Source of the DNA: a virus
Lineage: Duplodnaviria; Caudoviricetes
Strand: one strand, 5' to 3'
IMG/VR virus record: IMGVR_UViG_3300049846_001015
Coordinates: 1 to 52,647 of that record
DNA: 52,647 nucleotides
Part shown: positions 2,037-38,972 of the stretch, in pieces
Layout of the letters: each line of letters begins with the position of its first letter
Position numbering within the stretch: position 1 is the first letter of the stretch
Position numbers and translations under genes: made by a program
The notes under the pieces: generated by a model
What the model was told of the DNA's origin: nothing
The model's database searches: none
What the model saw: only the letters and a program-made list of their open reading frames with translations

Positions 2037-2180
2037 AAAAGACGGTGTGAATAGTGTGAGGGACAGGCTACAGTTCCTAGACCGCGAAATTGAATAGCGG
2101 TTAGATATTGAACTGCGTAGGCAGGAAGACAGACAGGAAGATCGAGGAACTTGAGCGGAATAGGATCAATCGGCTCGTTT

Positions 2181-2546
2181 TTATCGAGAACCACGCAATT
2201 TCTCCAGGATCTCTATTACGAAGTCGGGGCGGTCTTGAACGGTGAAAGCGGGAAAGTATAGCCCTCTCCAGCCTAAGAGTACGAGGGCATTGTGCTTTTG
2301 CCAATCTCGGATAGCGCCTTTCCCTGAATGCCCGTAACCGTGTCCTTGAACTTCTATGAAAATCTTGTCGGGGAAACTGAAATCAAGTCGCCAGTCCTTG
2401 TAGCCGGATTTGGCTAGTCGATCTCGCAATCCCGGACCAGAACCGACCATCTCTGCAAAAACACGGTGCTGCGGAGTGAATAATATATTACGCTCGTTAA
2501 GAGCGGAAGCAAGGGATTCTTCGGCGGTTTTTTTCGTTTTTTTCAT
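2181..2546 (-). CDS. Vsr/DUF559-like endonuclease
   Basis: WRLDFSFP..IFIEVQG..H...RDWQKHNAL.LLGWR motif. Confidence 0.75.
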   Translation of the reverse strand: MKKTKKTAEESLASALNERNILFTPQHRVFAEMVGSGPGLRDRLAKSGYKDWRLDFSFPDKIFIEVQGHGYGHSGKGAIRDWQKHNALVLLGWRGLYFPAFTVQDRPDFVIEILEKLRGSR

Positions 2547-2728
2547 GCTGGAGGGAACAAGCCTTGGCTATACCAAACGTTGTCGAGGATAGGATTACCG
2601 ATGGCGCGGGATATTGCTCCGTAAGGTCCAATGCCGAACCACGCAAATATTACGGCATCAAATTCCGAGAGACCCGAGAACGAATTGAGATCCTGAACTT
2701 CGAAATCCAGATGCTTTACTCTAGACAT
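2543..2728 (-). CDS. FAGYxEFD micro-protein array member 15
   Basis: Core SFSGLSEFDAVIFAW. Confidence 0.7.
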   Translation of the reverse strand: MSRVKHLDFEVQDLNSFSGLSEFDAVIFAWFGIGPYGAISRAIGNPILDNVWYSQGLFPPA

Positions 2729-2879
2729 ACTTAGTCCTCAGTAAAAAGGACAGCAAAGGTGGGAGTCGGGCCGCCGCAGGGTATACCAGAAACGGAACGA
2801 TGAAATCGTCGCATTCGCAATATCCGGCAAAAAATCGGATAGGAGTAGAGATGGAGAATTCGGGAAGATCAAGACGCAT
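2721..2879 (-). CDS. array member 14
   Basis: Manual translation; core FFAGYCECDDFIVPF. Confidence 0.7.
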   Translation of the reverse strand: MRLDLPEFSISTPIRFFAGYCECDDFIVPFLVYPAAARLPPLLSFLLRTKYV

Positions 2880-3024
2880 AGTATTTTGCCAAAATGCCCA
2901 CGAAAGAAACCCACTGAGCTCCGGGTGAAATCATAAATGGGACAATAAACGAGTCGTATTGGGAATATCCGGCGAAGCGGCGTTTTTCTATCCTAGCGTA
3001 TAAGCTAGGCGATTCAATTCTCAA
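2869..3024 (-). CDS. array member 13 (TTG start uncertain)
   Basis: Manual translation; core RFAGYSQYDSFIVPF. Confidence 0.65.
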   Translation of the reverse strand: MRIESPSLYARIEKRRFAGYSQYDSFIVPFMISPGAQWVSFVGILAKYYAS

Positions 3025-3208
3025 AGGTTACCTCCGAAAACTTGCTTCTCAAAGCGTAGGGGCATCCGTCCGAATGGAAGAACGCCGCGAAAATCACCCC
3101 GTCCATCTGATCGTACCCTTTCAAAGAAGCCCGAAGAGAACCTAGCCAATTTTTAGCTAGTCCGTGACACTTAAACCAATATCTGGTGCTTGGGTTTCCT
3201 ATTACCAT
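3014..3208 (-). CDS. array member 12
   Basis: Core SLKGYDQMDGVIFAA. Confidence 0.7.
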   Translation of the reverse strand: MVIGNPSTRYWFKCHGLAKNWLGSLRASLKGYDQMDGVIFAAFFHSDGCPYALRSKFSEVTFEN

Positions 3209-3357
3209 ACGTCAAGATTGATAGCTCTGGGTAATCCGTTGAAGTCAAAGAACGCAACCGCGAGAACCCGGTCGAATGCGTGGTGCCCCGCGAATTTCGT
3301 CACGAATTCATCCGTGCCCCATAGCGGAATTAGGGGGAGCCGAGAGTTTATCACCAT
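3202..3357 (-). CDS. array member 11
   Basis: Manual translation; core KFAGHHAFDRVLAVA. Confidence 0.7.
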   Translation of the reverse strand: MVINSRLPLIPLWGTDEFVTKFAGHHAFDRVLAVAFFDFNGLPRAINLDVW

Positions 3358-3360
3358 TTT

Positions 3361-3552
3361 TCACCGTTGATACATGAGATACCGCCCCACCGGACCAATA
3401 GTTGTGAACATGCAAGAAAAGATCCCGGAAGATAAGGGGGATTGGTTAAACGGAGCTATAACAGTATCGAATTCTCTATAACCTGCGAAATTTTGACCGA
3501 TCAAAGCCCACTCCCCCCAACCGGGGCCGATGTTAGTAGTTTGAAGTATCAT
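3361..3552 (-). CDS. array member 10
   Basis: Core NFAGYREFDTVIAPF. Confidence 0.75.
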   Translation of the reverse strand: MILQTTNIGPGWGEWALIGQNFAGYREFDTVIAPFNQSPLSSGIFSCMFTTIGPVGRYLMYQR

Positions 3553-3706
3553 AGATAAATCTGGTACTCCTGGCTTTTAGATCAAGTGGTTCGTAAGGGC
3601 TTGTGAGGACTGGATCAAACTCGTAGTCGCCCGCGAAAACACCATAAAAGCTGCGGGGGAAGAAGCGGTTTCGAATAATTTCCAAAGGTGAAACTGGGAG
3701 TTTCAT
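3533..3706 (-). CDS. array member 9
   Basis: Manual translation; core VFAGDYEFDPVLTSP. Confidence 0.7.
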   Translation of the reverse strand: MKLPVSPLEIIRNRFFPRSFYGVFAGDYEFDPVLTSPYEPLDLKARSTRFIYDTSNY

Positions 3707-3720
3707 GTTCAACTCGCAAG

Positions 3721-3915
3721 TTAATCTCGGTCAAACCAAAAGCAGTTATCCGGGACGCCGGGAAACGCGGACAGTAGATTATTGGGGATGTGCATAACAT
3801 GAGGTTGCCGGAGGAAGTTCACGATAATTTCGTCTAGATCCGCGAAACCCGCAAACATTGCGCAGTTAATCACGCACTTTTCGATAACTCGAAATCTTTG
3901 CCTCGGAAGATTCAT
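3721..3915 (-). CDS. array member 8
   Basis: Core MFAGFADLDEIIVNF. Confidence 0.7.
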   Translation of the reverse strand: MNLPRQRFRVIEKCVINCAMFAGFADLDEIIVNFLRQPHVMHIPNNLLSAFPGVPDNCFWFDRD

Positions 3916-4073
3916 GCTTCCCCCATAATCGCTTTTTCTATCATAAACGAAGGCATAGCCGCAACTGGACGATGAAATCGAAATGGAATGATAAACGAAT
4001 CACACTGAGCGTACCCGGCAAAAAAGTCGAGAGCGAGGAAATCATCCTCAGCCAACGGACACGGGAGGATCAT
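3912..4073 (-). CDS. array member 7
   Basis: Manual translation; core FFAGYAQCDSFIIPF; AAGGAG RBS; ATGA overlaps at both ends. Confidence 0.75.
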   Translation of the reverse strand: MILPCPLAEDDFLALDFFAGYAQCDSFIIPFRFHRPVAAMPSFMIEKAIMGEA

Positions 4074-4204
4074 GTTATCTCCTTAAAAATGCAACTACCG
4101 GCGCAGTCCGCCCAAATAACGCGGTCGAAATCGTAATACCCTACGAGAAGAAAAAACAAGTCCAGATTCAATTCCGTCGGTAAATCTTGGGATTCGACTT
4201 TCAC
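4070..4204 (-). CDS. array member 6
   Basis: Manual translation from GTG; core LLVGYYDFDRVIWAD. Confidence 0.65.
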   Translation of the reverse strand: MKVESQDLPTELNLDLFFLLVGYYDFDRVIWADCAGSCIFKEIT

Positions 4205-4209
4205 TCAGG

Positions 4210-4380
4210 CTACTCCGCATAATAATTTGGCTTGAGGCCGAACCACCAAGCGGCCTCGGCCCTTGCTCCTACGAAGGGGATCATAACCCAATCGAACTCA
4301 GCGAATCCGGCGAAGTTCTTGAAAGCGAGTACCGCAGCGTAGGCAGAGCAGGGGGTTTCCATCAACGGGAGAGCAGCCAT
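4210..4380 (-). CDS. array member 5
   Basis: Manual translation; core NFAGFAEFDWVMIPF. Confidence 0.7.
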   Translation of the reverse strand: MAALPLMETPCSAYAAVLAFKNFAGFAEFDWVMIPFVGARAEAAWWFGLKPNYYAE

Positions 4381-4538
4381 ATTTTTCCTTCGAATAGGAA
4401 ACTAACACAGGTATCAATGTCGGTGGGAGAGATCCCGTTAGGAATGTACGCGGCAAAAATAACGGAATCGAATTCTTGCCGCCCCTTGAACTTGCCATAA
4501 TACGGCACAATAGCAAACTTGTCTCGTCTAAGAATCAC
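4362..4538 (-). CDS. array member 4
   Basis: Manual translation from GTG; core KFKGRQEFDSVIFAA. Confidence 0.7.
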   Translation of the reverse strand: MILRRDKFAIVPYYGKFKGRQEFDSVIFAAYIPNGISPTDIDTCVSFLFEGKIWLLSR

Positions 4539-4734
4539 TCCCGGCCTCCGGAAACTCAGGGGGAGAGAAGATCAAGTCCAAATTTCGCAGAGGGTCCGCG
4601 CCTACAATCATCCTTCCCCTCCCCAGTCCACAGAAAAATGACGCAAAAATCACCGAGTCACAATCAAGATACCCAGCGAACTTGGTGTATCCCGCGTAAG
4701 GGGGGCGGGCGGCGTTATAAGCTGGTAACAGCAT
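4528..4734 (-). CDS. array member 3
   Basis: AGGAG RBS before ATG 4734; core KFAGYLDCDSVIFAS. Confidence 0.75.
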   Translation of the reverse strand: MLLPAYNAARPPYAGYTKFAGYLDCDSVIFASFFCGLGRGRMIVGADPLRNLDLIFSPPEFPEAGSDS

Positions 4735-4757
4735 GATCTCTCCTAATTTCTGCGTTG

Positions 4758-4952
4758 TCAATCCCAAAGATCATAGTCGATGAATCGACTCGGAAGCGCT
4801 ATCGGGTCGCCGTGTCGATAAGGAGAGGCTATTGCGTAGTCGAACTCAAAATTCCCCGCGAACCTAAAGAAGTCCTTAAAAATCTCCCTCATTTGTAGAA
4901 CGCTCCCCGGAACCGTGGATCTCCGTTTCGAAAATTCAGGTTCTAGAAGCAT
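4758..4952 (-). CDS. array member 2
   Basis: Core RFAGNFEFDYAIASP. Confidence 0.7.
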   Translation of the reverse strand: MLLEPEFSKRRSTVPGSVLQMREIFKDFFRFAGNFEFDYAIASPYRHGDPIALPSRFIDYDLWD

Positions 4953-5128
4953 AATCTCCCACCGAAAGTAAAGTTTCGGGAGAACCCTGTCCTCGACACT
5001 CGGATTCGAGCCTCGGGGTCGTCATACAAAAACGGAATTATCGCCTCGTCGAACTCCGTGTACCCGACGAAATTCGCGATGGCGTTAATCTTGCCGCCGC
5101 CGTATTCAATGTTGCTAACGACTCTCAT
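4943..5128 (-). CDS. array member 1
   Basis: GGAG RBS before ATG 5128; core NFVGYTEFDEAIIPF. Confidence 0.75.
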   Translation of the reverse strand: MRVVSNIEYGGGKINAIANFVGYTEFDEAIIPFLYDDPEARIRVSRTGFSRNFTFGGRLCF

Positions 5129-5146
5129 AAATACTCCGAGAGACAC

Positions 5147-5181
5147 AAAAAACCCCGGCCAAGTAGGGGTCTTGGCCGGGG
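5147..5181 (-). terminator. Rho-independent terminator
   Basis: 11-bp perfect stem CCCCGGCCAAG/CTTGGCCGGGG followed by a T6 run on the minus strand, downstream of 5221..5691. Confidence 0.8.
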
Positions 5182-5220
5182 GAGAGACTGCCGAAGTCCT
5201 AAGGACTACCGGCTTCCGGG

Positions 5221-5691
5221 CTAGTCGCGAGCACGCCGTTCGGCCTGTTCCTCGGCGTCCCAGTTTCGTTGGATCACAACCGCGCAGGTCATCTCGCCCT
5301 TGTAGACGTGATTCCCGTGCTCCGGGTGGGTCAACTCGGCTTGGCCGTTGGCGGTTTGGAACACCGGCCCGATGTAAGTCGGGTTGATATTCGCGCCGTT
5401 GGCTTGCCGGATCAACTCGACCACGCTGTCCGGGTCGCAGTCGTAGATGTTCCCGGTGCTCAGGACGTGGCGGGAACCCTGAGTGTCCCCTTCCGCCACT
5501 TGCCGGTTGGCCCGGACTTTCGCCTTCGCAGGCAAGCGGGGGATACGAACGACGATCACGTCGCCTTGATCCACAGCTTCCCCGATGCCCAACTGAGCCT
5601 CGGTGAACTCCACCGGCGCGTCGTTGTGCATCTTTTCGTGGTCTCCCGTAACTCGCGGGATGATCCGTTCTTTCGTCACTTCTTGAAGCAT
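5221..5691 (-). CDS. conserved QGD/H-x-E-H protein (typical DUF6745 neighbour)
   Basis: QGDV...AEGDTQGSRH...LTHPEHG motifs; GGAGG RBS. Confidence 0.7.
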   Translation of the reverse strand: MLQEVTKERIIPRVTGDHEKMHNDAPVEFTEAQLGIGEAVDQGDVIVVRIPRLPAKAKVRANRQVAEGDTQGSRHVLSTGNIYDCDPDSVVELIRQANGANINPTYIGPVFQTANGQAELTHPEHGNHVYKGEMTCAVVIQRNWDAEEQAERRARD

Positions 5692-5765
5692 TCTAGCCTC
5701 CAGTACAAAAATCGAGAGCAATTAGAACGGTTTACTCTCCCACACCGTATTCGAAAAAGCCTTCC

Positions 5766-6830
5766 CTAGCTACGATGGATGGTGAAACGGTCGAGACCGT
5801 GACTCATCCAATCTTGTGCCGCCTGACAACTGTTGATTGTCATGGGCACTCCTAACGCATAGCGACGACCAGTGGAGGGATCGCTACAACAAAAGCGGCG
5901 GGTATCGGAATTCCGCATCTTGTACAGCACTTCCTCTTGGGCGTCCCGGTCATTGGTGCGGGAGTCAACGACTTCCGCGCCAGATTCCCGAAGATATCGT
6001 TCCCAACCGAACCGCTCGATCCGAATCCGACGGCGTTCTTCGTCCCGCTCCCGTTCAATCTGCTCGATTGTCTGAGTCTCGGGACGCATCACAATCTGCT
6101 CGTCCACCTCAACGCCGTGGATGGAGTAGAACTTGTGACCGTCGGCGTATGCCATCGCGGGACCGTCCTCGCAATGCAAACGGTAGTTGTCCGAACCGGG
6201 GGTCTTTTCGATCTTCCGCGTGGTGGCCCGTTCGCAGAAAATCACGAATTCCGTGTCGTCGAACCGGGGACCGCCGTTCAAGCAGAGACGCTCGTAAGCG
6301 TCGTACTTCTCCGGCTCGTTCGGCTGAACTCCCTTGATATCCCGGAGGAAGCTCATGTAGCAGCAATGGAATCCCCACTCGCTGCCACCGTTGTACCAAT
6401 CCGGCCACCGCTGGCGGCACTTTTCCGCGTCGGAGTCGATCTTGTAGCCCGACTTCGGGAAAGTTTCCTTAATGAAATTGTTGGCCCATTCCAAGCCAGC
6501 TTTCCACGCCTTGTCCGGCGAGCAATCCCGGATATGCTCCAGCAAGCCGGGGGCGATGTTGGGGCATTCCCCGAATCGCCCGTCCTTGCCGAACTTCTCG
6601 TACATTGCCACGCTAATCGCGGTGACCACGATCCCGATCATCGCCGAAGGGGCGTAGAGGATCACTTCCGGACCGTCGTATCCGGCAGCTTTGTGGTAGT
6701 CGCGAATGGCTTTCGCGCACTCTTCCTTGTTGATCGGCTCGGTGGAAAGGATCACGTCGATCCACTTTTGGTTCCACCCCGGGAGAATGTCACGTTCTTC
6801 TTCCGGCGTAATTCGAATCTCGTCGCTCAT
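5766..6830 (-). CDS. DUF6745-like protein
   Basis: RLHCEDGPAMAYADG..YSIHGV..EERRRIRIERFGWERY..DPSTGRRYALGVP; AGGAG RBS. Confidence 0.75.
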   Translation of the reverse strand: MSDEIRITPEEERDILPGWNQKWIDVILSTEPINKEECAKAIRDYHKAAGYDGPEVILYAPSAMIGIVVTAISVAMYEKFGKDGRFGECPNIAPGLLEHIRDCSPDKAWKAGLEWANNFIKETFPKSGYKIDSDAEKCRQRWPDWYNGGSEWGFHCCYMSFLRDIKGVQPNEPEKYDAYERLCLNGGPRFDDTEFVIFCERATTRKIEKTPGSDNYRLHCEDGPAMAYADGHKFYSIHGVEVDEQIVMRPETQTIEQIERERDEERRRIRIERFGWERYLRESGAEVVDSRTNDRDAQEEVLYKMRNSDTRRFCCSDPSTGRRYALGVPMTINSCQAAQDWMSHGLDRFTIHRS

Positions 6831-6938
6831 TGTCTCTCCTGATCTTAATAGGGACTCTTAATGTTTCCCGGTACACCACAAGGATAGTCAATCAAATCGT
6901 AAAGGCAAGGAAAAAACCAAAAAAATCTCAAAAATCGC

Positions 6939-7691
6939 TTATTCGCAGGGGAAAACAACGAATTTCCGTTCCGGCTGCGCTTCGATTTGCTTGGCAACCC
7001 AAGCCTCAAAATCGCCGTCGAAGCTACCGGGGAACGTGCGATTTCGGATATGTCCCCAGCAATCCCGAGCGATGGATTTAGCGGTTTCCCACAGAGATTC
7101 CTCTCCGTGGTAGAAAAGAGTCCGGAAAGAGAAATCATCCCTATTGACGAGAATGAAGCAGGTTTCTTCCTTCTCAAGCAATTTCTGATAGACTGTTGCT
7201 TGCATACGATAGTCCACTGGGAGGGAATCCGGATGTTGCCACTCTTTGTAGTAGAATGAGTTGCAGACCTTGATTTCACCGTGGACTATGCCGTCAATCC
7301 CGAACTCTTGACCATGCAACAAACCATCGACTTTGCCCGAAAACCCAAAGTTCTGACAGAAAACTCGGGGTTCCTCCAATTGGGTTAGAACCTTTGAGCC
7401 GAATAGATGTTCCTGGATAATTCGGTGGACTACATTCCCAGTCTCTCCGTAAAGCCGCGATCTCCAGTTCTCCTTACGATGGCCCGGACTCCAATAGTCG
7501 ATGATCCAGGTGGGGATATTGATTTTGCCGAGGCCGGAAACCCACAAGCTCTTGATCGGCCAGGGATCTCCCTCTCGGTCGAAAGAATCCAGCTTGCGCT
7601 CGAGCGCCGCCGCCGTAATCTTTGAGCGAACCCTCTTCGGTTTTTCCTGCGAAGGGAGACCGCTACTGAACAGTTTTTCGAAGTTCATCAA
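6939..7691 (-). CDS. PD-(D/E)xK exonuclease (Cas4/RecB-like)
   Basis: G..VH..IQE, SGKVDG, EIK and Q..VY motifs. Confidence 0.75.
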   Translation of the reverse strand: MMNFEKLFSSGLPSQEKPKRVRSKITAAALERKLDSFDREGDPWPIKSLWVSGLGKINIPTWIIDYWSPGHRKENWRSRLYGETGNVVHRIIQEHLFGSKVLTQLEEPRVFCQNFGFSGKVDGLLHGQEFGIDGIVHGEIKVCNSFYYKEWQHPDSLPVDYRMQATVYQKLLEKEETCFILVNRDDFSFRTLFYHGEESLWETAKSIARDCWGHIRNRTFPGSFDGDFEAWVAKQIEAQPERKFVVFPCE

Positions 7692-8010
7692 AAACTCCTA
7701 ATGGTATTAGCACCCAAGTTTTCGGAGTGCCGAACTTCATAGAATGGAAAGTCACCGAGAAAGCGGGGTCTTTGTTCGTTTCCCTAGCCTCTTTCGTAAT
7801 CTTCCTCAGATCTGACTGTGCGATTCGGTAAGTCAGATGCTCGGTTTCTTTGGACTCCAAAAGAAAATCAGGGAGAACTACGTCTCCCTTACGATTATCC
7901 AAAGCCCCGCTGTTGGGGGTAGGAATTCCCCCAAGATTTTTCGCCAGTTCCTTCTCCGTCTTTGCCGCGCGTTCCTTGGGAGTTTTCTTGCTGCCTAGTT
8001 GTCCTCGCAT
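7663..8010 (-). CDS. Holliday junction resolvase-like PD-(D/E)xK nuclease
   Basis: EKELAK..GG..TPNSGA...KGDV....LLESK. Confidence 0.7.
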   Translation of the reverse strand: MRGQLGSKKTPKERAAKTEKELAKNLGGIPTPNSGALDNRKGDVVLPDFLLESKETEHLTYRIAQSDLRKITKEARETNKDPAFSVTFHSMKFGTPKTWVLIPLGVFDELRKTVQ

Positions 8011-8315
8011 TATAGTGGCCCTGTATCTTCTGTCGAACCTCTCTTTTTTCCCAAAAGCCGGTAGACCGTTTTTTCAAGCAAATCAATCAAGAAAATGAGA
8101 AGTAACGCGGGACCAAGAAATAGTCCTCCGAGCCGCAAAAAATGTCCCAAAGCATAGCCAAAGAGAAGATAGATGTCTAGCGGATTTCCCATACCCCGGA
8201 AGTCGAGCCCGACCCATCCGGAATAGAACCCGAGAAATATCCCAGAAAACCATCCGACTGCCGCCATACCGGAGATAGCCAGAAAGATTATGAGGACATC
8301 GAGAAGTCGCTTCAT
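8010..8315 (-). CDS. membrane protein
   Basis: Two long hydrophobic segments. Confidence 0.6.
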   Translation of the reverse strand: MKRLLDVLIIFLAISGMAAVGWFSGIFLGFYSGWVGLDFRGMGNPLDIYLLFGYALGHFLRLGGLFLGPALLLIFLIDLLEKTVYRLLGKKRGSTEDTGPL

Positions 8316-8488
8316 TCGGAGTCCCTCGAACTGTCAAATTTGACGGCGCAAACATCCGGCTTCTCACTCAATCGAACGGCATACAGAGTCCCATAGCCGT
8401 ATTGAGTAGAAAATCGGTTATCGCGGATAAATTCTCGGCATTGTTCGAGAGTTCCGCGCATCAGAGTCTTATCTTCTTTCGTCATCAT
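8312..8488 (-). CDS. small hypothetical protein
   Basis: Fills the gap between neighbours; ATGA overlap with the next gene. Confidence 0.45.
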   Translation of the reverse strand: MMTKEDKTLMRGTLEQCREFIRDNRFSTQYGYGTLYAVRLSEKPDVCAVKFDSSRDSE

Positions 8489-8717
8489 CTTCTTTTTCTC
8501 CATGAATTTCCAAAAATCGCTCGATTTTCTCAATCTGCTTGATACATTCTCGGTGAAAATCGAGTTCGTCAATAACATCGAAAACTCGAAAAACAAGCAA
8601 GAACATAAGGCAAATTCCGATTGCCCATTTCTCTGGTCCTCCCCCGCAATAGTTCAAAATACCTGCGTAGAGGATCAACAAGGCGTCGGGAGCTATCTCA
8701 CTGAGAACAGCTTTCAC
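8469..8717 (-). CDS. small membrane protein
   Basis: GTG start overlapping the previous stop; two hydrophobic segments. Confidence 0.55.
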   Translation of the reverse strand: MKAVLSEIAPDALLILYAGILNYCGGGPEKWAIGICLMFLLVFRVFDVIDELDFHRECIKQIEKIERFLEIHGEKEDDDERR

Positions 8718-9001: not shown

Positions 9002-9019
9002 AGTTATTCTCCAGAAAGG

Positions 9020-9093
9020 TAAGCCGGGCGGGATTCGAACCCGCAACCGACGGATTAGAAATCCGTTGCTCGATCCAATTAAGCTACCGGCTC
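9020..9093 (-). tRNA. tRNA-Arg(UCU)
   Basis: Cloverleaf: GAGCCGG/CCGGCTT acceptor, GCTT/GAGC D-stem, ACGGA-TTTCTAA-TCCGT anticodon arm, GCGGG-TTCGAAT-CCCGC T-arm; CCA not encoded. Confidence 0.92.
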
Positions 9094-9340: not shown

Positions 9341-9581
9341 TTTTCAGCCCCTCCCGAATGGACTTCTCGAAATCCTCACACTGAGCCAGCAAATCCCCGA
9401 GTTCTTGTCTGTCGTTTATCGACCACCCGGAGGGCGATTTCAAAACAATAAAAGGTTCCTCCCCCGGAAGTTGGTACTCAAACTCCACAAAGAGAGATTC
9501 CACGTCCTCTGTGGTCCCCAGTGTATTGCCCTCTTGAGTAAACTCAAAAGAGCACTTAGCTATGTTTATTTCTCGACTCAT
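9333..9581 (-). CDS. hypothetical protein
   Basis: 82-aa ORF overlapping both neighbours. Confidence 0.6.
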   Translation of the reverse strand: MSREINIAKCSFEFTQEGNTLGTTEDVESLFVEFEYQLPGEEPFIVLKSPSGWSINDRQELGDLLAQCEDFEKSIREGLKNE

Positions 9582-9798
9582 AGAGATCCAAAAGCTCCCG
9601 TTGTTTCTGAACGACCCGCGTAGCTAGATCAATAGTATTACAATTGAGCCAAGCGAACAAGGCTAAAAGCGAGATATTTACAAAACAAAATAGTTGAGTG
9701 ACCCAAGGAACGGGGGAAAGGGGGACCGCCCAACAGGTGAACAAACCTGCGCCGCCCACTAATAGAATAGCCACTTTCTGGAAATCCGTATCGCTCAT
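9556..9798 (-). CDS. two-TM membrane protein (paralogue of 10322..10510)
   Basis: FQKVAILL...PW..Q..C...I.LLA.FA. Confidence 0.65.
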   Translation of the reverse strand: MSDTDFQKVAILLVGGAGLFTCWAVPLSPVPWVTQLFCFVNISLLALFAWLNCNTIDLATRVVQKQRELLDLYESRNKHS

Positions 9799-11880: not shown

Positions 11881-12070
11881 CTTCGCACTTCCGTGGTTGA
11901 ACCAATTGAATCAACTTACCGCCACATTCTCTGTCATGTGCCTCTCGCCATTCTGGCGTTGCTTGCGTCGGCGTCCCCCAGGCTAGCCCGTGGTGCAACG
12001 CAAATCCCTGCCAGTTGCATTTATATCTCAGCGAGCAGCACCACACGCCAGGATGGTAAAATTCACTCAC
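11864..12070 (-). CDS. small Cys/His-containing protein
   Basis: GTGA-coupled ORF. Confidence 0.5.
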   Translation of the reverse strand: MSEFYHPGVWCCSLRYKCNWQGFALHHGLAWGTPTQATPEWREAHDRECGGKLIQLVQPRKCEDEQTS

Positions 12071-12639
12071 TCCCCACCCCCTGCGAGCTTGCGGGCGAGT
12101 GCTTCCATAGCTTTAAGAGCCTTGCCGAACTGCTCGTCCGCGTTCTTGTCCGAAACAAGTTTACTGGCTAATTCCACGACAACTTTTCTCGCCTCGCCGT
12201 ACTCCCTCAGCACACGCTCCGCTTCGGATTCGGGGCGGGAGTTCCAGTGTCGTTCGGCTTCTTTTGCTCCATGCGAAGACGCGACGCGAACCCCGCACCC
12301 ACGGCATTCGACCAAATGCAAATCGTCGCCGTCGTCCCCTAATCGCCGCGGATCGTCTCCACAAAACGGGCACGGCTTCAACTCACTGATCTTCGCTTCG
12401 TCGGGTTGTGATTTGCGAACCATCAACCGCACCTCTGCTTTGCTGTATAGGCACAATGCACACACGTTCATGCCGTGGCGGCTCGCGGCTGAACTGCTGC
12501 CGCACGATTCGCACACCGCTTCGTCGGGCACTCGGGCATTGACCAACCGCCCGCAAATAACACACGGTTCATCAACCGAATGAATGTAATTGCAGCATTG
12601 CCACGTCGTCGGCCCGCCGTCGTCTTTACTTTCGGTCAT
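12067..12639 (-). CDS. Lar-like restriction alleviation zinc-ribbon protein
   Basis: LKPCPFCG....VECRGCG.....EAERHWNSR. Confidence 0.7.
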   Translation of the reverse strand: MTESKDDGGPTTWQCCNYIHSVDEPCVICGRLVNARVPDEAVCESCGSSSAASRHGMNVCALCLYSKAEVRLMVRKSQPDEAKISELKPCPFCGDDPRRLGDDGDDLHLVECRGCGVRVASSHGAKEAERHWNSRPESEAERVLREYGEARKVVVELASKLVSDKNADEQFGKALKAMEALARKLAGGGE

Positions 12640-15365: not shown

Positions 15366-15723
15366 TCTCCAGGATAGGTTCCAGGTAAGGAGGAGAGTAG
15401 GTCGGGGGTTTGATCCATTTTCCCCCCTCGTCCCGGTGCCCTCCGACTTTGCTCATGTTCGAACGATGGATTTCATCGAAAATCTGGTCGGTTGGCAAGC
15501 CGCAGCTTACCGCCGTCCCGAGAACGACGTACATCAAATCCCCGAGGGCGTCCGCCACTTCCACGATATCGTGGTTGTCGAAAGCTTCTTGAAGTTCTTC
15601 AAGCTCCTCCTTGATAAGCCGAACGCGGAGTTGCACCGTTTGAGAATCCGGAATTCCGGGTCGTTCCCGGACAACCAGCCCGAAAGTCTCATGGAATTCC
15701 TTAACCATTTCTTGTTCGCGCAT
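15340..15723 (-). CDS. MazG-like/PRA-PH nucleoside triphosphate pyrophosphohydrolase
   Basis: VKEFHETFG..LIKEELEEL..EVADALGDLMYV..EIHRSNMSK. Confidence 0.85.
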   Translation of the reverse strand: MREQEMVKEFHETFGLVVRERPGIPDSQTVQLRVRLIKEELEELQEAFDNHDIVEVADALGDLMYVVLGTAVSCGLPTDQIFDEIHRSNMSKVGGHRDEGGKWIKPPTYSPPYLEPILENADASTTL

Positions 15724-16255
15724 CGAATACTCCTAAAAACTTGCCTTTTGAGTGTTCTGGGATGAGAGTTTCCGGCTGGGGGAAGTTGAACGGCTCCTTA
15801 GTAAGATCCAAAGCCCTGTATCCGGCAGACGGCTTATCCATCCGTTTCGAGTTGTCCGCTCCCGGATAAGTGGTGGAAATGAACCAGTCGCACCGAGTTT
15901 TCCGCAAAACTTGCAGAATCATCTCGTTTGGAAGATGGATAAAGACATCTCTTGCAACGACGATCTCTGCGGTAAATTGACGCACATCCAGAATGTTAGA
16001 CTCGGTGCAATCATAAGCTTCCCATGAAGGATGGGATTTGATATCAAAACCTCGATATTGCGCACCGGATTGAAAGAGGGCATGGCGGGCAAAGTTCAGA
16101 TCTCCACAGCCCAATTCGATTATGACAGAGGGATTCTTCTCTTTGAGAATAGCGGGAAGTCGGGCAATAACTTCCTGCATATTGCAAACTTTCGACCCGG
16201 CCCCGCAGCGAGTTTCGTCCCCACCCCCGAACCAATCAGTCGGAAACTTTTCCAT
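15701..16255 (-). CDS. class I SAM-dependent methyltransferase
   Basis: CGAGS, IELGCGD, Y.GFDI and RDVFIHL motifs. Confidence 0.8.
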   Translation of the reverse strand: MEKFPTDWFGGGDETRCGAGSKVCNMQEVIARLPAILKEKNPSVIIELGCGDLNFARHALFQSGAQYRGFDIKSHPSWEAYDCTESNILDVRQFTAEIVVARDVFIHLPNEMILQVLRKTRCDWFISTTYPGADNSKRMDKPSAGYRALDLTKEPFNFPQPETLIPEHSKGKFLGVFDARTRNG

Positions 16256-16946
16256 GTTTTTCCTTCAACTTCTTGAAAATCACGCCTTTCGGATGCCGAT
16301 TAGACCCCCTAATCGGGGATCTCTTACGGTAGATGTAGATGGGATCTTGGATATTCGCGATTTCGCTCGACGATAGGACTTTCAAGAGCGGGAACATCAA
16401 AGCCACGTCGGTACACACTCTCAGCCACTTGTTGTCCAATACAAAGTGAGATTCCTTGAGATGCGGCAACAGAGAAGTATGGAAAGTTCGGAGAGGGGGA
16501 GCTTTGAAGTTCTTATCTTCCAGAAAGGAATTGTCGTCTATTTGCTCAGGAGTGTACCATCGAGGATGCCCGCCTCCGATTCCCTTATGACGCGCCCACC
16601 CTCCCAGTGTCATTTTGAATCCCTGTTCATAGTAAGGAGCTACGATGGAAAAGGCATCTCTCCTCAGATAATCGTCGAGATCCAGTTGAACGGCAACGCC
16701 GGGTCCGGAAATTTCTTGAATCAAATCCCAGCGAGACTTAGCCGCGCCTAGATTGGCTTTTGTCCGGGAAGCATGAATTCGGGGATCTTCTTTAGCCAAT
16801 CTCTCAAGTTTCCCAAACGTGGCGTCGGAAGATCCGTCATCCCGGACAAAGGCTTCCCATTCCTCTGTCTGGGAGTACAAAGAACTGTACCAGTCATCGA
16901 CGAATTTCTCACAGTTTAACCCGCAAGAAATTACGAAGAATTTCAT
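16236..16946 (-). CDS. glycosyltransferase family 2
   Basis: SLYSQT...DDGSSD...N.G...LDLDD. Confidence 0.85.
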   Translation of the reverse strand: MKFFVISCGLNCEKFVDDWYSSLYSQTEEWEAFVRDDGSSDATFGKLERLAKEDPRIHASRTKANLGAAKSRWDLIQEISGPGVAVQLDLDDYLRRDAFSIVAPYYEQGFKMTLGGWARHKGIGGGHPRWYTPEQIDDNSFLEDKNFKAPPLRTFHTSLLPHLKESHFVLDNKWLRVCTDVALMFPLLKVLSSSEIANIQDPIYIYRKRSPIRGSNRHPKGVIFKKLKEKHGKVSD

Positions 16947-17605
16947 CGAAAGTCCTCTAGGTTAAGAGAGATTCGGTGACCCATCGGCTTCTTAGTGAAG
17001 ATGTTGGAGTCGTGGATTACCTGGAGACCGCCGATTTTTGGTATCCTAATCTGCTTAGAGAACAGCTTACAAATTGCGGCGTGAGAGGCTGAATAGCAAT
17101 GCCGCTGCCGAGTAGAATGAATCACCGAAACAAACTGGGAATTGTTCAGGGGCCGAAGGACTTTGCGGAATTCTCCAGTCTGGATATCTATCTGCGCGGT
17201 ATCCCAATCAACCAAAACTGGATGGGGCTTCTTAACGAAATCCGCTTTTCTCCGGAGACCTGTCCAAGTTTCGTAGAGAGTTTTCACGAAATCCCGACAA
17301 AGCATATCGTCACTGTCCATCCGGGTAGTGATCGAACCCTCAGGAAATTCGTAATCCTGGATGGGACTGAAAGAGACTTCGGCAAATTCTTTCAGATACC
17401 GAAGGATTTCCAGGGAGGTGTCTTTGTGGCAAGCAAAAACGGCGATAAAATCCTTGCGGGTTTGTTTCTCCAGAGAGGGTCTCATGTACTCTCGAACAAG
17501 GGAGAGTCGGCGGTTTACCCATTCCTCGTTCAACCAGAGCGCCTTAGCGGCCTGAACCCTATCCGTTGGGATAGAGTTGAAACGAGTTAGGATGTAATGC
17601 GACAC
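16943..17605 (-). CDS. GT-A fold glycosyltransferase (putative rhamnosyltransferase-like)
   Basis: HYILTRFN...W..RRL....PSL.KQT..DF...TTRMDSDD. Confidence 0.75.
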   Translation of the reverse strand: MSHYILTRFNSIPTDRVQAAKALWLNEEWVNRRLSLVREYMRPSLEKQTRKDFIAVFACHKDTSLEILRYLKEFAEVSFSPIQDYEFPEGSITTRMDSDDMLCRDFVKTLYETWTGLRRKADFVKKPHPVLVDWDTAQIDIQTGEFRKVLRPLNNSQFVSVIHSTRQRHCYSASHAAICKLFSKQIRIPKIGGLQVIHDSNIFTKKPMGHRISLNLEDFR

Positions 17606-20379: not shown

Positions 20380-20836
20380 GATTATTCCTAATAGGAGTAG
20401 TTAGTGCTTTTTGAAAATCCCAGCCAGCTTTTATTCGACGCCAAAACGATTTATACGGAATCCCAGCTTCCAATGCCCACTGTTTTAGATTTTGACTTCT
20501 TCCTTCAAACTCGACTAGGACATTCGTAACCCTGTTGTTCTGTTGTTCTTTTTGAGTCGCCCAACGGCAATTTTCTGGGAAGTATCCAAGATTTCGGTCT
20601 ATCCGATCAATTGTATGCTTTTGCGTGGGTTTGACTCCCATGTCTGAAAAGAAATTCTCAAAAGAGTTAGACCATCGCTCGCATACGGTTATCCCTCTAC
20701 CTCCGTAAAGATGATATCGGTTGTTCTTGGGATTGTTACACCGCTCCCGCATTTTTACCCAAGATTTCCACTCCGAGGTATACCGCATTCCGTGTTTATA
20801 ATTCATTAAGGGAATCTCGCCATTCGGTAAGATCAC
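20360..20836 (-). CDS. HNH-type endonuclease (homing-endonuclease-like)
   Basis: MRERC.NP....Y..YGGRGITVCERW..F.NF..DMG...TIDRID...GY.PENCRWAT.KEQ.NN. Confidence 0.85.
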   Translation of the reverse strand: MILPNGEIPLMNYKHGMRYTSEWKSWVKMRERCNNPKNNRYHLYGGRGITVCERWSNSFENFFSDMGVKPTQKHTIDRIDRNLGYFPENCRWATQKEQQNNRVTNVLVEFEGRSQNLKQWALEAGIPYKSFWRRIKAGWDFQKALTTPIRNNHGKRSN

Positions 20837-21747
20837 GCTTTTCTGACATCGGCTTTCTCCAATCGTTTTTCAATCAACTTGACATAATCGGGGTTTAATT
20901 CAATCCCCACGGCATTTCTGTTGTTTTGTAAGGCTACTTGGATCGTAGTCCCGCTTCCGACAAAAGGATCGAGAACTGTCCCATTCTCGGGGCATCCGGC
21001 TAAAATGCAAGGCAGAATAAGCTCGGGAGGGAAAGTGGCAAAGTGTGCCCCCTTGAAGGGTTTAGACGTAACCGTCCAAACGGATCTCTTATTTCTCTTG
21101 CCGTCGCCGGGAATTCCTGCCCGCCCCCCATCGTTCCTATCCCCATTAGCCCCAGACTTCTCGGCTAAACTCCCGTTAAATTTTCCAGGCGTTCCTGCTG
21201 GCTCGGAAATCGCGTCCTTGTCAAAGTAGTACCTCGGACCCTTCGACAGCAAAAAAATGTACTCGTGCGCCTTCGTACACCTATCTCGCACACTTTCTGG
21301 CATCGGGCTCGGCTTGTTCCAGATAATGTCCTGGCGGAGATACCACCCATCGGATTGCAGGGCGAACGCAACTCGCCAGGGAATGCCGATTAAGTCTTTC
21401 GGTTTGAGGCCAGGGACATTAGCGCCAGATCGTGAAATTCCACGATGCCGAGCAAGATCGGCCTGCTTTCCACCGCCAGAGTGACCACCGTTTCTACCTG
21501 CGTTGTAACTATCCCCCAAATTCAGCCACAAAGTCCCGTCATCCCGCAATACCCGCCGAACACTCCTAAATACCTCCACCAACTTCCCAACATACTCGTC
21601 AGGAGTCTCCTCAAGACCGATCTGTCCCGTAACCCCATAGTCTCGCAATCCAAAGTACGGCGGACTCGTCACACAACAATGTACGGAGTTATCAGGCAGT
21701 TCTTTAATTTTCTCAAGAACATCGCCGACGAGAACTTGGTATCCCAC
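20833..21747 (-). CDS. DNA methyltransferase, N4C/N6A beta class
   Basis: TSPPY, HFATFP and VLDPFVGSGTT motifs; GTG start overlapping the previous TAG. Confidence 0.92.
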   Translation of the reverse strand: MGYQVLVGDVLEKIKELPDNSVHCCVTSPPYFGLRDYGVTGQIGLEETPDEYVGKLVEVFRSVRRVLRDDGTLWLNLGDSYNAGRNGGHSGGGKQADLARHRGISRSGANVPGLKPKDLIGIPWRVAFALQSDGWYLRQDIIWNKPSPMPESVRDRCTKAHEYIFLLSKGPRYYFDKDAISEPAGTPGKFNGSLAEKSGANGDRNDGGRAGIPGDGKRNKRSVWTVTSKPFKGAHFATFPPELILPCILAGCPENGTVLDPFVGSGTTIQVALQNNRNAVGIELNPDYVKLIEKRLEKADVRKA

Positions 21748-22316
21748 TAGTCCCTCAGTTTCATATCTTCGGTTTTTCGAACAGTCCAACAGCTTCCCCT
21801 TTTCTTCACTACGCCTTTGGGGAAACTCCCGTCAACAGCTTTTACTACATCCGGCCAGCCGGTCCCGTAGTCGTGACCGGCCATCCATCCCCCGGGTTTG
21901 ACCTTCGGGAACCACGCTCGGATATCCGCTCTAACGGCGTTGAGCGTGTGCTCCATGTCGATGAACATCACGTCAATGCTATTATCCGCAAAATCGGGGG
22001 CGGCTTCCAGAGAAGTTTTTCGAATTGGCGTGAATTTCCGCTCTCCCATGTTCTCAAGGAACATAGCGTAAACGTCATTCGTAACAGCCAGCTTGTGGAA
22101 AGTTTCAAGCTCGTTCACCGAACCCTTCCAGGTATCTACGATGAAAATTTGTGCGTTGGGCCGGATCTCCGCAGCTTTATCGCATAGATAAGAACTGCTT
22201 TTCCCTAACCAAGCGCCGCCCTCCACAAAAACACCGTTTTCCGGCATCTCTTGTAGAAGGAAATCAAACACTTGCGGGTAGTCAAACCAACCGCCGATTT
22301 GTGAAGTCGGTTTCAT
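21747..22316 (-). CDS. class I SAM-dependent methyltransferase (Methyltransf_24-like)
   Basis: VEGGAWLGKSS, VDTW.GS, FIDMEH and VKPGG..AGHDY motifs. Confidence 0.85.
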   Translation of the reverse strand: MKPTSQIGGWFDYPQVFDFLLQEMPENGVFVEGGAWLGKSSSYLCDKAAEIRPNAQIFIVDTWKGSVNELETFHKLAVTNDVYAMFLENMGERKFTPIRKTSLEAAPDFADNSIDVMFIDMEHTLNAVRADIRAWFPKVKPGGWMAGHDYGTGWPDVVKAVDGSFPKGVVKKRGSCWTVRKTEDMKLRD

Positions 22317-22678
22317 TTCACACTCGCAAAAATCTGAGGATATTTCTCGGAGAGAAACTTGTAAAAACTCTCGCAGTCCTTCTCCATGCGGGCCTCGGCA
22401 GTAGCCGCGCAGAACTTCATTGCATTCTCCATCTCTTGTGGATCGAGATAGCAAGGTACGGAAACGAAACAGCCTATCTTCAAACTGTTGTAATTTCCTA
22501 AATTTTTCGTAACTGCGCGATCCGCCGAAACAGTAGCCGTGGGAACGCCCTCCATATTCGGCAGAGAGATCTTCTCCACTGTTTCTACGTCCTGAATAAT
22601 AGTCCCCGAGGACGAGAATACTCGGCTAACCGAGATAACAGACTGGCGACTTTCAACAGATTTACAGCACTTACTCAT
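22313..22678 (-). CDS. hypothetical protein
   Basis: T.NLGNYNS.KI...VSVPC motif; ATGA overlaps. Confidence 0.65.
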   Translation of the reverse strand: MSKCCKSVESRQSVISVSRVFSSSGTIIQDVETVEKISLPNMEGVPTATVSADRAVTKNLGNYNSLKIGCFVSVPCYLDPQEMENAMKFCAATAEARMEKDCESFYKFLSEKYPQIFASVK

Positions 22679-24436: not shown

Positions 24437-24876
24437 TAAGCCACTCGGCCTTTAGAAGCTAAGAAATCGGCGCGGTCGTTATAGGAGTTGCCGGAGTGTC
24501 CGCGAATCCAGGAAACCTTAAACCGCTCTACTTGTTCCAGGAGAGACTCAATGTGCTGCCAAAGATCCGAATTCGCAACGGGTTTCCCGCTGGAAGTTTT
24601 CCAGTCGTTCCTAGCCCACATCGCCGCCCACTCCACCATGCCTTGCTGGCAATACTGAGAGTCGGTCACGATTTCAAAGTAGGGAAGTTTTTCCCCTATT
24701 GAATATTCGATAGCTCTAATTATAGCTTGAAGTTCACAGCGATTGTTAGTAGTTCCGGTAAGTCTACCGTGTTTTTCGAAAATAACTTTGTCATTCTCGA
24801 CAACGACAAACGCCCAACCGCCACGGCGAGACTTGGGAGAAAAAGCCCCATCCGTGTAAATCTTGGTATGACTCAC
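24436..24876 (-). CDS. rnhA: ribonuclease HI
   Basis: IYTDGA, TTNNRCEL.A, TDSQY, VAN.DLW, W.RGHSG..YNDRAD.LA. Confidence 0.95.
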   Translation of the reverse strand: MSHTKIYTDGAFSPKSRRGGWAFVVVENDKVIFEKHGRLTGTTNNRCELQAIIRAIEYSIGEKLPYFEIVTDSQYCQQGMVEWAAMWARNDWKTSSGKPVANSDLWQHIESLLEQVERFKVSWIRGHSGNSYNDRADFLASKGRVA

Positions 24877-34981: not shown

Positions 34982-35019
34982 AGCTTTATGGGCTTTCCGA
35001 AAAACTTGTCGTATCATAA

Positions 35020-35086
35020 AGGCAAGTGCGGGAATCGAACCCGCCTTACGCATCTTGAAACTGCGATGTCTCCCAGAGCACCTGCC
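35020..35086 (-). tRNA. tRNA-like gene with UCA anticodon (putative tRNA-Cys-derived opal decoder), shortened D-arm
   Basis: GGCAGGT/ACTTGCC acceptor with U discriminator; CGCAG-TTTCAAG-ATGCG anticodon arm with a G.A closing mismatch; 4-nt variable loop; GCGGG-TTCGATT-CCCGC T-arm. Confidence 0.7.
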
Positions 35087-35092
35087 CGTAGC

Positions 35093-38956: not shown

Positions 38957-38972
38957 TGCTCGCCAGTGGGCG

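Follow-up and report, generated by a model that had tools for sequence, protein, structure and literature searches.

The window, the whole 52,647-nt stretch of DNA that was analysed, comes from a tailed-phage record from fresh water that is about 51% complete. On its minus strand, at 5128..2543, lie fifteen mini-genes in tandem, each encoding 44–68 amino acids (Table 1). A sequence-only reading had claimed an array of 15 ORFs here, and all of them were recovered on the minus strand at the positions it gave, with three starts corrected to 5128, 4734 and 3706. In mini-gene 3 the listed ORF of 79 aa begins at a TTG further upstream, and mini-gene 5 has an alternative start, an ATG at 4380, which would give 56 aa. 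Stop and start regions mostly overlap, as had been noticed: 10 of the 14 junctions overlap by 1–20 nt, and the remaining four are gaps of 3–23 nt.

Table 1. The mini-gene array and the elements at its two ends, in 5' to 3' order on the minus strand; lengths are those with corrected starts.
Feature	Coordinates	Strand	Length	Core	Remarks
Intrinsic-terminator-like hairpin	5153..5181	-			11-bp stem, 9 G-C pairs, T-run; strong
Mini-gene 1	4943..5128	-	61 aa	FVGYTEFDEAI	ATG start, GGAG upstream
Mini-gene 2	4758..4952	-	64 aa	FAGNFEFDYAI	10-nt overlap with gene 1
Mini-gene 3	4528..4734	-	68 aa	FAGYLDCDSVI	ATG behind AGGAGA
Mini-gene 4	4362..4538	-	58 aa	FKGRQEFDSVI	GTG start
Mini-gene 5	4210..4362	-	50 aa	FAGFAEFDWVM	
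Mini-gene 6	4070..4204	-	44 aa	LVGYYDFDRVI	GTG start
Mini-gene 7	3912..4073	-	53 aa	FAGYAQCDSFI	Overlap with gene 6 is ATGA
Mini-gene 8	3721..3915	-	64 aa	FAGFADLDEII	Overlap with gene 7 is ATGA
Mini-gene 9	3533..3706	-	57 aa	FAGDYEFDPVL	
Mini-gene 10	3361..3552	-	63 aa	FAGYREFDTVI	Nearest to consensus
Mini-gene 11	3202..3357	-	51 aa	FAGHHAFDRVL	
Mini-gene 12	3014..3208	-	64 aa	LKGYDQMDGVI	
Mini-gene 13	2869..3024	-	51 aa	FAGYSQYDSFI	TTG start behind GGAGG
Mini-gene 14	2721..2879	-	52 aa	FAGYCECDDFI	
Mini-gene 15	2543..2728	-	61 aa	FSGLSEFDAVI	TGA overlaps ATG of next gene
Vsr-like nuclease gene	2181..2546	-	121 aa		ATGA coupling to mini-gene 15; fold from low-confidence model

The hairpin closes an upstream 166-aa gene and stands 25 nt ahead of mini-gene 1. 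A promoter-like site at 4761-4733 was rejected; it overlaps the start codon of mini-gene 3, and the number of such sites equals that in shuffles. The array sits behind replication and recombination genes and is distant from the tail genes. On the basis of its tape measure gene the phage is siphovirus-like, and it has other counter-restriction genes, for a Lar-like protein, a DNA methylase and several glycosyltransferases. The 121-aa gene that follows the array has no sequence match in Pfam or the PDB. Its structural model, of low confidence (pLDDT 51.9), was aligned by VIA-align to the catalytic domain of I-Bth0305I (Z 8.9), a Neisseria endonuclease-like protein (7.9) and Vsr (7.2) as the top three, and Foldseek also placed the I-Bth0305I entry first (E 0.028). 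The best structural matches of the model are in this way free-standing Vsr-like or EDxHD homing endonucleases, as described in the available part of the source (PMC3239194); the 121-aa neighbor differs from these in having no intron and no DNA-binding extension.

The copies share a core of 11 residues with the consensus FAGYxEFDxVI, which begins 16–30 residues from the N-terminus (zero-based offsets) and leaves a variable stretch of 14–39 residues on its C-terminal side. All 15 cores quoted in the earlier reading are correct. Their common pattern is [FL]xGxxxxDxx[ILM], and the G and the D, said to be invariant, are constant in 15 of 15 copies. The expression [FL][AVKS]G....D..[ILM] has 15 matches in the six-frame translation of the array and none in the other 50,043 nt; in the comparison with shuffles that the earlier reading had asked for, 200 shuffled arrays gave a mean of 0.07 matches and a maximum of 1. 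Pairwise identity among the copies is 14–32%, with mini-gene 6 the most divergent member, and 37 of 105 paralog pairs score over the best of 300 shuffled controls. The flanks had been called unalignable, which is only partly so: an M-x-[LIV] element with a Pro nearby recurs at the N-terminus, and a basic-aromatic patch recurs close to the C-terminus. Six of the 15 members contain a D-x-x-I-x-P-F stretch, internal rather than terminal, which may resemble the C-terminal docking tips of bacterial SSB or FtsZ. At the DNA level the absence of long repeats was confirmed, the best family being five copies of 45 nt with 62–73% identity to the reference copy. No long repeats of the array were found elsewhere, 15 of 15 matches lying within the array itself. 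Duplication of whole blocks is not claimed, because a similarity peak at lag 7, with p=0.03 alone, has p=0.16 once all the lags tried are allowed for.

Several observations indicate that the ORFs are coding. All 15 frames are open, each with a start codon, and an SD 4-mer is found ahead of 9 of the 15 starts (background 0.14, p=5.5e-5). The proposal that conservation is at the protein level agrees with the codon entropy of the core, 9.35, 7.49 and 17.0 at positions 1, 2 and 3. The natural SNP set consists of 28 SNPs inside CDSs, among 40 differences listed out of 216. Seventeen of these 28 fall on the third position of the codon (binomial p=0.0027); 17 are synonymous and 11 are not, where random change would be expected to give a synonymous fraction of 0.17–0.33. 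In a variant haplotype of gene 11, insertions of +1, +2 and +3 nt (6 nt in total) within 9 nt keep the frame, and in a variant of gene 3 the frame is restored by -1/+1 indels. ARAGORN found two genes in the window, none of them inside the array. At the gathering score the sole Rfam match in the window is a tRNA at 9020-9093, again outside the array, and at E<=1 over 2100-5400 there is one match of 20.6 bits, over the terminator, and none in the array. The region is one predicted polycistronic unit, made up of 15 paralogous mini-genes with translational coupling, and the pattern of variants shows that purifying selection keeps the mini-genes as proteins.

The variants come from two metagenomes, X1 and X2, in which the flanks are near-identical to the window and parts of the array are up to ~10% different; this comparison rests on 28 of 74 contig pieces and on 40 listed of 216 differences. 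In X1, two long contigs covering 1-2828 and 4757-8604 have nine differences in total, seven of which fall within 2543-5146, the ORF span given earlier; three of those seven (5141, 5143 and 5146) lie just upstream of the corrected start of gene 1 at 5128. Both gene 15 and the nuclease gene are within the conserved part of the X1 contig. The part from 2828 to 4757 is covered in X1 by short contigs only, with 0, 0, 31 (plus 6 gap letters), 7 and 22 differences in 232–404 nt. In X2, two listed pieces of the array have 11 and 47 differences and six listed flank pieces have none. The array is the divergent, mosaic spot of otherwise nearly identical phage genomes. A constant core with variable arms had been suggested, and the mini-genes, which are real coding paralogs, bear this out: when a second, near-identical haplotype is compared with the window, the core differs at 3 of 66 residues, all at free x positions, compared to 40 of 278 outside the core (Fisher p=0.036). 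In one haplotype gene 8 has a premature stop two codons short of its end and another gene is shortened. Since the listed SNPs point to purifying and not to positive selection, the divergence represents old alleles or recombination and no arms race is demonstrable. The array was also considered as the target of a diversity-generating retroelement and rejected: changes in X1 run in all directions and are not adenine-specific (A>G 34, G>A 29, C>T 32, T>C 29), and no reverse transcriptase with a template repeat was found in the window, where the sole RT-like Pfam match is an RNase H protein.

The family had not been recognized from the letters alone, and its profile likewise matches no characterized family. 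Pfam gave no match for any of the 15 members at E<=1, PHROGs v4 matched one of 15 with an E of only 0.74, PADLOC-DB matched none of 15, and a profile search of the PDB gave a single match with E=1.3. When the profile of the 15 was run against 1.84 billion protein representatives there were 11 matches at E<=0.001, seven of which are the window's own proteins, while three come from one near-identical contig of 2599 bases. The eleventh is taken as chance; it is a protein of 972 aa in which a GYDVDF-like stretch is repeated. In word-indexed searches, 10 of 57 candidates and 9 of 24 were matches, and every one of them belongs to the phage of the window or to the 2599-base contig. The string FAGYxEFD was found at 17 loci in viral contigs, and the wider 11-residue pattern at 47 loci among metagenome contigs and at 30 among genome contigs. 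Among these 94 motif loci there is no second array; the profile scan never matched a locus more than once, most matches being within larger ORFs or start-less frames, and no synteny with the window was found. A core-like pattern at the C-terminus of several phage family-6 glycosyltransferases was dismissed as coincidence because the similarity ends at the pattern. The 166-aa protein and a neighboring one of 276 aa have no relatives in viral contigs. The nuclease profile found one locus, at 42% identity, which has no array in its mere 580 nt of upstream sequence, and a metagenome scan with the ortholog P0006 found nothing. A limited full-text search of the literature on phage tandem paralog arrays and gene accordions found no comparable array of phage mini-genes. 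By these searches the mini-protein family is an orphan. Since it has no relative outside this phage lineage, function cannot be transferred from known proteins.

Structural modeling gave no confident fold. AlphaFold2 of gene 10, with 21 alignment rows, reached a pLDDT of 49.8 and a pTM of 0.19, and an Atlas model (pLDDT 0.38) gave feature matches of at most 0.79, which is noise level. No partner could be predicted from a modeled complex of the nuclease with mini-protein 15. It may be that the mini-proteins are disordered, or that their role is a different one. They are not membrane proteins, the highest 19-residue hydropathy being 1.54.

No part of phage genomes is less well understood than the proteins of fewer than 70 aa, a size that many known anti-defense proteins have. 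The shared core and the variation between strains suggest a putative kit of small host-directed proteins, and the explanation that we prefer, with a probability of about 0.4, is that the array encodes a diversified host-interaction or counter-defense family. Such a family would go back to repeated tandem duplications, after which the copies would have diverged deeply. Its products would be accessory proteins for interaction with the host, with inhibitors or decoys in the conflict of phage and host the likeliest kind; the core would supply a common fold or docking element and the arms would direct each copy to a target of its own, or to its own variant of a single polymorphic target. Because different hosts would favor different sets, old alleles of the block would be retained, or exchanged by recombination. 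The earlier reading had likewise proposed anti-defense inhibitors, adaptors or decoys with a docking motif. The other counter-restriction genes of the phage fit such a role. Counted against it are the lack of a confident fold and of relatives outside this phage lineage, the purifying stamp of the listed SNPs, and the strong terminator right upstream of the block, which bears on how, when and how much it is transcribed.

A precedent for the duplication step is the segmental amplification of tifA, a counter-defense gene, in evolved T4, where, according to the part of the report available, a small accessory phage gene was likewise multiplied in tandem by recombination (bioRxiv 10.1101/2022.04.14.488369). 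The T4 copies described there are recent, identical and act by dosage, whereas the mini-genes have diverged to 14–32% identity, an indication that the duplications are old and the roles separate. A further proposal, against which we would bet, is that the array is a library of mini-inhibitors, carried by the phage and variable between strains, with a single docking core as its base. It would be a viral counterpart of bacterial polyimmunity loci, in which each copy would neutralize a different variant of a polymorphic host defense or toxin, and phages otherwise identical would trade whole blocks, perhaps aided by the adjacent homing-type nuclease. Fifteen clearly real and clearly related mini-genes form the fast-changing part of this genome, and they offer a natural experiment in which a single scaffold comes in fifteen versions and one water body has at least two sets of alleles. 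Should the members bind host proteins, they would show how one small fold is spread over many targets and be a source of compact binders. If they are inert, they would be a clean case of duplicated mini-genes persisting in a size-limited genome.

A reading in which the array is largely neutral filler made of tandem-duplicated short ORFs under weak constraint, with copies lacking distinct functions and perhaps hitch-hiking by a selfish homing-type nuclease gene, is unlikely. The restriction of the family to one phage lineage, the failure of AlphaFold2 to find a fold, the early stop in gene 8 and the other shortened gene, the terminator upstream and the likeness of the next gene's model to a homing endonuclease catalytic domain (VIA Z 8.9) would all suit it. 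Neutral ORFs, however, would not be expected to have 15 of 15 open frames with starts and mostly with SD words, to hold G and D constant among copies so divergent, or to vary chiefly at synonymous sites with indels that stay in frame.

Quite unlikely, too, is a phage version of a homogeneous polyimmunity locus, encoding immunity-type inhibitors of nucleases or toxins, possibly of the Vsr-like nuclease downstream. In the available part of their description, the bacterial loci, SUKH arrays for example, resemble the present one in being tandem, same-strand, packed sets of distant paralogs, with very short intergenic distances and probably one message, uninterrupted by toxin or other genes and variable between close strains (PMC3482391). 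The coupling of gene 15 to a gene whose low-confidence model has a nuclease fold, and the place of both in the conserved part of the X1 contig, fit this as well. The array differs from the loci described there in being phage-borne rather than bacterial-chromosomal, and its products of 44–68 aa belong to no known immunity family and have no cognate toxin system in view. No member falls in any Pfam family, those of immunity proteins in Pfam included, and the scan of 53 window proteins turned up no gene for a polymorphic toxin. Also to be weighed against it, typical immunity proteins are larger than 44–68 aa.

The odds are poorer for small proteins packaged in the virion and injected, in the manner of the T-even internal proteins, with a conserved targeting sequence and a variable cargo against host defenses. 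The ip loci, which act in counter-defense, likewise encode diverse small phage proteins sharing a short conserved element, a constant tag with a variable remainder, and differ between related phages, in the part of the source available (PMC3012670), and the array too varies between strains. The ip element described there is an N-terminal tag, in contrast to the core, which is internal, beginning as it does 16–30 residues from the N-terminus; all 15 mini-proteins are recognizable paralogs, and the siphovirus-like phage has its array near genes for replication and recombination, at a distance from those of the tail. No capsid targeting sequence or prohead-protease site was found in the mini-proteins, whose N-termini share only M-x-[LIV] and the nearby Pro, and this half of the genome has no prohead protease or head gene.

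There is very little to recommend a library of RiPP-like precursors, with the core as recognition sequence and the variable C-terminal arm as the substrate of a modifying enzyme. An internal motif followed by a variable C-terminal part of 14–39 residues in many tandem copies would suit it, and with about half of the genome outside the record the enzyme could lie beyond the window. The 53 window proteins scanned, however, contain no radical-SAM, YcaO, lanthipeptide-synthetase, RRE or leader-peptidase domain in Pfam, and the mini-proteins have no conserved cleavage motif of the double-glycine type; their arms lack a regular Cys/Ser/Thr pattern, with 0–3 Cys per mini-protein and none in 5 of 15. 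Finally, a repeated RNA or protein-binding DNA element with incidental ORFs can be set aside, for although weak direct DNA repeats of 24–45 nt (60–73% identical) and an AT skew raised over 2–5 kb would agree with it, ARAGORN and Rfam, the latter even at E<=1, leave the array blank, its starts, SD words and overlaps of stop and start follow a regular pattern, and the third codon positions of the minus-strand frames carry the variation, both among the copies and among the natural variants.

The fifteen paralogous mini-genes on the minus strand form a translationally coupled operon of mini-proteins under purifying selection, and the array is the divergent spot of the phage genome. All fifteen open reading frames described in the sequence-only reading are present. 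With starts assigned to start codons lying behind ribosome-binding words, the mini-genes, numbered in the direction of transcription, span 5128 to 2543 and encode products of 44-68 aa. Ten of the 14 junctions overlap, by 1-20 nt, and at the remaining four the genes are 3-23 nt apart. AGGA, GGAG or GAGG is found at -18 to -4 before 9/15 starts (p=5.5e-5), compared with a background of 0.14 over all array positions and 0.10 before 107 other ATG/GTG/TTG triplets. Gene 15 ends in a stop codon that overlaps the start ATG of the next gene, which encodes a 121-aa protein (2181-2546, minus strand). At the other end, 25 nt ahead of gene 1, there is a terminator-like hairpin (5181-5153, minus strand; 11-bp stem, 9 G-C pairs, T-run). 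A promoter scan after the hairpin gave no convincing promoter, and the block would thus be reached by read-through or from a promoter type outside the scan's coverage.

The genes are real and the motif that unites them is well above chance. The pattern [FL][AVKS]G....D..[ILM] occurs 15 times in the array, compared with a mean of 0.07 in 200 shuffles, and is absent from all six translated frames of the remaining 50,043 nt. A profile built from the 15 members found exactly 15 places in the record, all of them the mini-genes. The glycine and aspartate said to be invariant are present in all 15 copies of the 11-residue core (consensus FAGYxEFDxVI). The arms on either side had been called unalignable; they are in fact weakly alignable, since two features recur outside the core, an N-terminal M-x-[LIV] with a proline nearby and, close to the C-terminus, a basic-aromatic patch, and 37/105 paralog pairs outscore all of 300 shuffled comparisons. 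The similarity groups are loose. One consists of genes 1, 5, 7, 10, 13 and 14, which share D-x-x-I-x-P-F and to which gene 8 is closest, a second of genes 3, 4, 11, 12 and 15, and a third of genes 2 and 9, with gene 6 alone. A faint signal of duplication of a seven-gene block lost significance after correction for the lags tried (p=0.16).

Conservation had been placed at the protein level, in the absence of long DNA repeats, and both points were borne out. The repeats are short and weak, the best being 45 nt with 62-73% identity to the reference copy. At positions 1, 2 and 3 of the 11 core codons, entropy sums to 9.35, 7.49 and 17.0, and the core glycine is encoded by GGG, GGA, GGT and GGC and the aspartate by GAC and GAT, which indicates that the copies are held together as proteins. 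Natural variation, from contigs of four public runs compared with the window, gave the same answer. In a sample of 40 of the 216 differences, 28 are inside predicted genes; 17/28 are at codon position 3 (binomial p=0.0027) and 17/28 are synonymous, where 17-33% is expected of random changes. The variant haplotype carries insertions of 1, 2 and 3 nt inside nine bases of gene 11, and a -1/+1 pair in gene 3; the frame is restored in both genes.

The array stretch was represented by 0.80 of sampled words in a freshwater sediment run and 0.36 in a freshwater run. The contig comparison gives a partial picture of variation, from 28 of 74 contig pieces. In the sediment run, two long contigs span 1-2828 and 4757-8604 with 4 and 5 differences, 7/9 of which (2759, 2769, 5085, 5096, 5141, 5143 and 5146) are in the span 2543-5146 originally assigned to the open reading frames; of these, 5141, 5143 and 5146 fall shortly before the corrected gene 1 start. 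The flanks thus have two differences in ~6,000 bases. The array between these contigs is covered by short contigs only. At 3271-3587, one contig is identical to the window (depth 12.5) and another differs by 31 letters plus 6 gap letters (depth 10.9); summed, the two depths come close to the flank depth of 21-22. Other array pieces from this run have 0/232, 7/404 and 22/219 differences. Among the freshwater pieces listed, two from the array have 11/625 and 47/571 differences, and six from the flanks have none.

When translated, the variant letters yield the proteins of a near-identical 2599-base metagenome contig: gene 9 has R18H and Y21C, for example, and gene 8 has F61I and ends two codons early. 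The variants are therefore orthologous alleles rather than cross-mapped paralogs. Adenine-specific mutagenesis was rejected as their source because changes occur in all four transition directions. In six ortholog pairs, 43/344 residues differ: 3/66 in the core, all at free x positions, and 40/278 outside it (Fisher p=0.036), which supports the earlier view of a constant core with variable arms. The variation is read as a mosaic of old alleles, carried by genomes that are very young and nearly identical, a pattern expected of loci kept polymorphic or exchanged by recombination.

The array would have arisen by repeated tandem duplication with long divergence afterwards. The core would act as a fold or docking element common to all copies, the arms would provide specificity surfaces, and the mini-proteins would help the phage to deal with its host. 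Tentatively, with a probability of about 0.4, they are inhibitors or decoys in phage-host conflict, a reading favored by the size class of the proteins, the strain variability, and the other counter-restriction genes of the phage, namely those for a Lar-like protein, a methylase and glycosyltransferases. An anti-defense reading of the array is reasonable, but unproven. That the array is filler under weak constraint, lying next to a selfish nuclease gene, is unlikely. Functions outside the readings considered here take up the remaining probability.

In layout, the array is nearest to bacterial homogeneous polyimmunity loci, described as tandem, tightly packed, same-strand paralogs that vary between strains (PMC3482391). 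The mini-proteins, however, match no immunity family, and a phage locus of this type, possibly tied to the adjacent nuclease, is improbable. In logic, the nearest are the T-even phage internal-protein loci, in which diverse defense proteins are described as having only a conserved targeting sequence in common (PMC3012670). The conserved element of the mini-proteins is internal, and packaged internal proteins with a targeting element are quite improbable. Lacking an immunity-family match and having an internal conserved element, the array appears to belong to neither system. Amplification of tifA in evolved T4 indicates that phages can multiply a small counter-defense gene in tandem; those copies are young and identical (bioRxiv 10.1101/2022.04.14.488369), whereas the mini-genes are only 14-32% identical. 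The array is rated a phage accessory multigene locus.

The mini-proteins are rich in phenylalanine (10.5% vs. 4.3% in ten large phage proteins) and proline (6.9% vs. 4.6%). Twelve of the 15 have a pI of 4.1-6.1, and genes 4, 12 and 13 encode basic ones (pI 8.7-9.6). A membrane-spanning stretch is absent from all 15, the highest 19-residue hydropathy being 1.54. AlphaFold2, given an alignment of all paralogs and orthologs, produced no confident fold (pLDDT 49.8); the Atlas's own model of a mini-protein was no better, and its neighbors were at noise level. That these are a library of precursor peptides is very unlikely. A non-coding repeat is scarcely credible; ARAGORN found no RNA genes in the array, and Rfam none even at E<=1.

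The family, which the sequence-only reading did not recognize, is a new orphan, so far confined to one phage lineage. Pfam and PADLOC matched 0/15 members, PHROG one at E=0.74, and a PDB profile search with the family gave one match at E=1.3. A search of 1.84 billion representative proteins with the family profile reached no characterized family: of 11 matches at E<=0.001, seven were the window's own and three came from the 2599-base contig. The remaining match (972 aa, 37.8 bits) is regarded as a fortuitous resemblance in a short motif; this secreted-looking protein has four C-terminal repeats, each with a G-Y-D-V-D-F stretch. Word-indexed searches of 5.8 billion clusters added proteins from the same 2599-base contig only. 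Back-translated motif scans gave 17 viral, 47 metagenome and 30 genome contig loci, none with more than one profile match or sharing other genes with the window. Since small open reading frames are often uncalled and the scans require an exact match, diverged arrays could still exist. At the C-terminus of some phage proteins resembling family-6 glycosyltransferases there is a conserved stretch with FAG[YF]CEFDP[VK]IVH, which matches the core; the similarity stops at the searched pattern.

The 121-aa protein had been called a Vsr-like nuclease, which is plausible, but not secure. Two aligners agree on the same top group, although the AlphaFold2 model is poor (pLDDT 51.9, pTM 0.48): VIA-align placed the I-Bth0305I homing endonuclease catalytic domain first (Z 8.9, rmsd 3.2, 91 aligned), followed by a Neisseria endonuclease-like protein (Z 7.9) and Vsr (Z 7.2), and Foldseek placed 3r3p first (E 0.028). 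There is no Pfam or PDB sequence match, and the sole sequence-family match is a PHROG of unknown function. Three further contigs encode homologs with 61-69% identity; the longest of these contigs (27,590 bases) carries the one at 61%.

The window is an entire linear IMG/VR virus record of 52,647 bases, with completeness estimated by CheckV at ~51%, and nearly all its long open reading frames are on the minus strand. Its gene content, including a tape measure protein, is that of a siphovirus-like tailed phage. In the direction of transcription, the tape measure and glycosyltransferase genes are listed first, then those for a DnaB-like helicase, primase, family A DNA polymerase, RNase H, SNF2-type helicase, DNA methylase and RecA-like protein. 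The array is at the far end of the replication and recombination block. The Lar-like domain and the methylase and methyltransferase-domain proteins look like a counter-restriction toolkit; a MazG-like protein is also encoded. Of a supposed pair of DUF6745 proteins, one was confirmed and the second was absent among 53 proteins scanned.

Coordinates of features in the window and of core-bearing glycosyltransferase-like proteins on other contigs
Feature	Position	Strand	Evidence
Tape measure protein	45182-48901	-	
Glycosyltransferases, at least five (GT2 x3, GT1, rhamnosyl-transferase-like)	16236-17605, 33087-34736, 38152-40898	-	
Lar-like restriction-alleviation domain, N6/N4 DNA methylase, two more methyltransferase-domain proteins	12067-12639, 20833-21789, 21747-22454, 15701-16255	-	
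Cas4-like exonuclease	6939-7691	-	
DUF6745 protein	5766-6830	-	Pfam, E=3.3e-18
166-aa protein	5221-5721	-	
tRNA-Arg(TCT) gene	9018-9093	-	Rfam 67.9 bits, ARAGORN
tRNA, 69 nt, anticodon TCA, labelled SeC	35019-35087	-	ARAGORN
Family-6 glycosyltransferase-like proteins with core-like end (motif-scan loci)	L016:1746-2474, L021:4709-5446, L039:3378-4106, L055:823-1188		

The SeC-labelled tRNA, which scores 25.2 bits with the Rfam tRNA-Sec model vs. a gathering score of 47 and is not reported by the general Rfam tRNA model, is within a ~1-kb stretch without a long minus-strand open reading frame and may be degenerate or suppressor-like. Translation table 11 gives good readings of the long genes, with no indication of TGA recoding. 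Two of the glycosyltransferase-domain proteins are fused to long uncharacterized regions; the target of these enzymes may be DNA, the virion or the host surface. An 80-aa open reading frame (9556-9798, minus strand) weakly resembles the Csm6 HEPN domain, with E=4.4e-4 and 20.4 bits, short of the cut-off of 27. In the family A DNA polymerase (24873-26759, minus strand), residues 394-420 give a weak rubredoxin-like match, below the cut-off (E=5.7e-4), between two polymerase-domain stretches.
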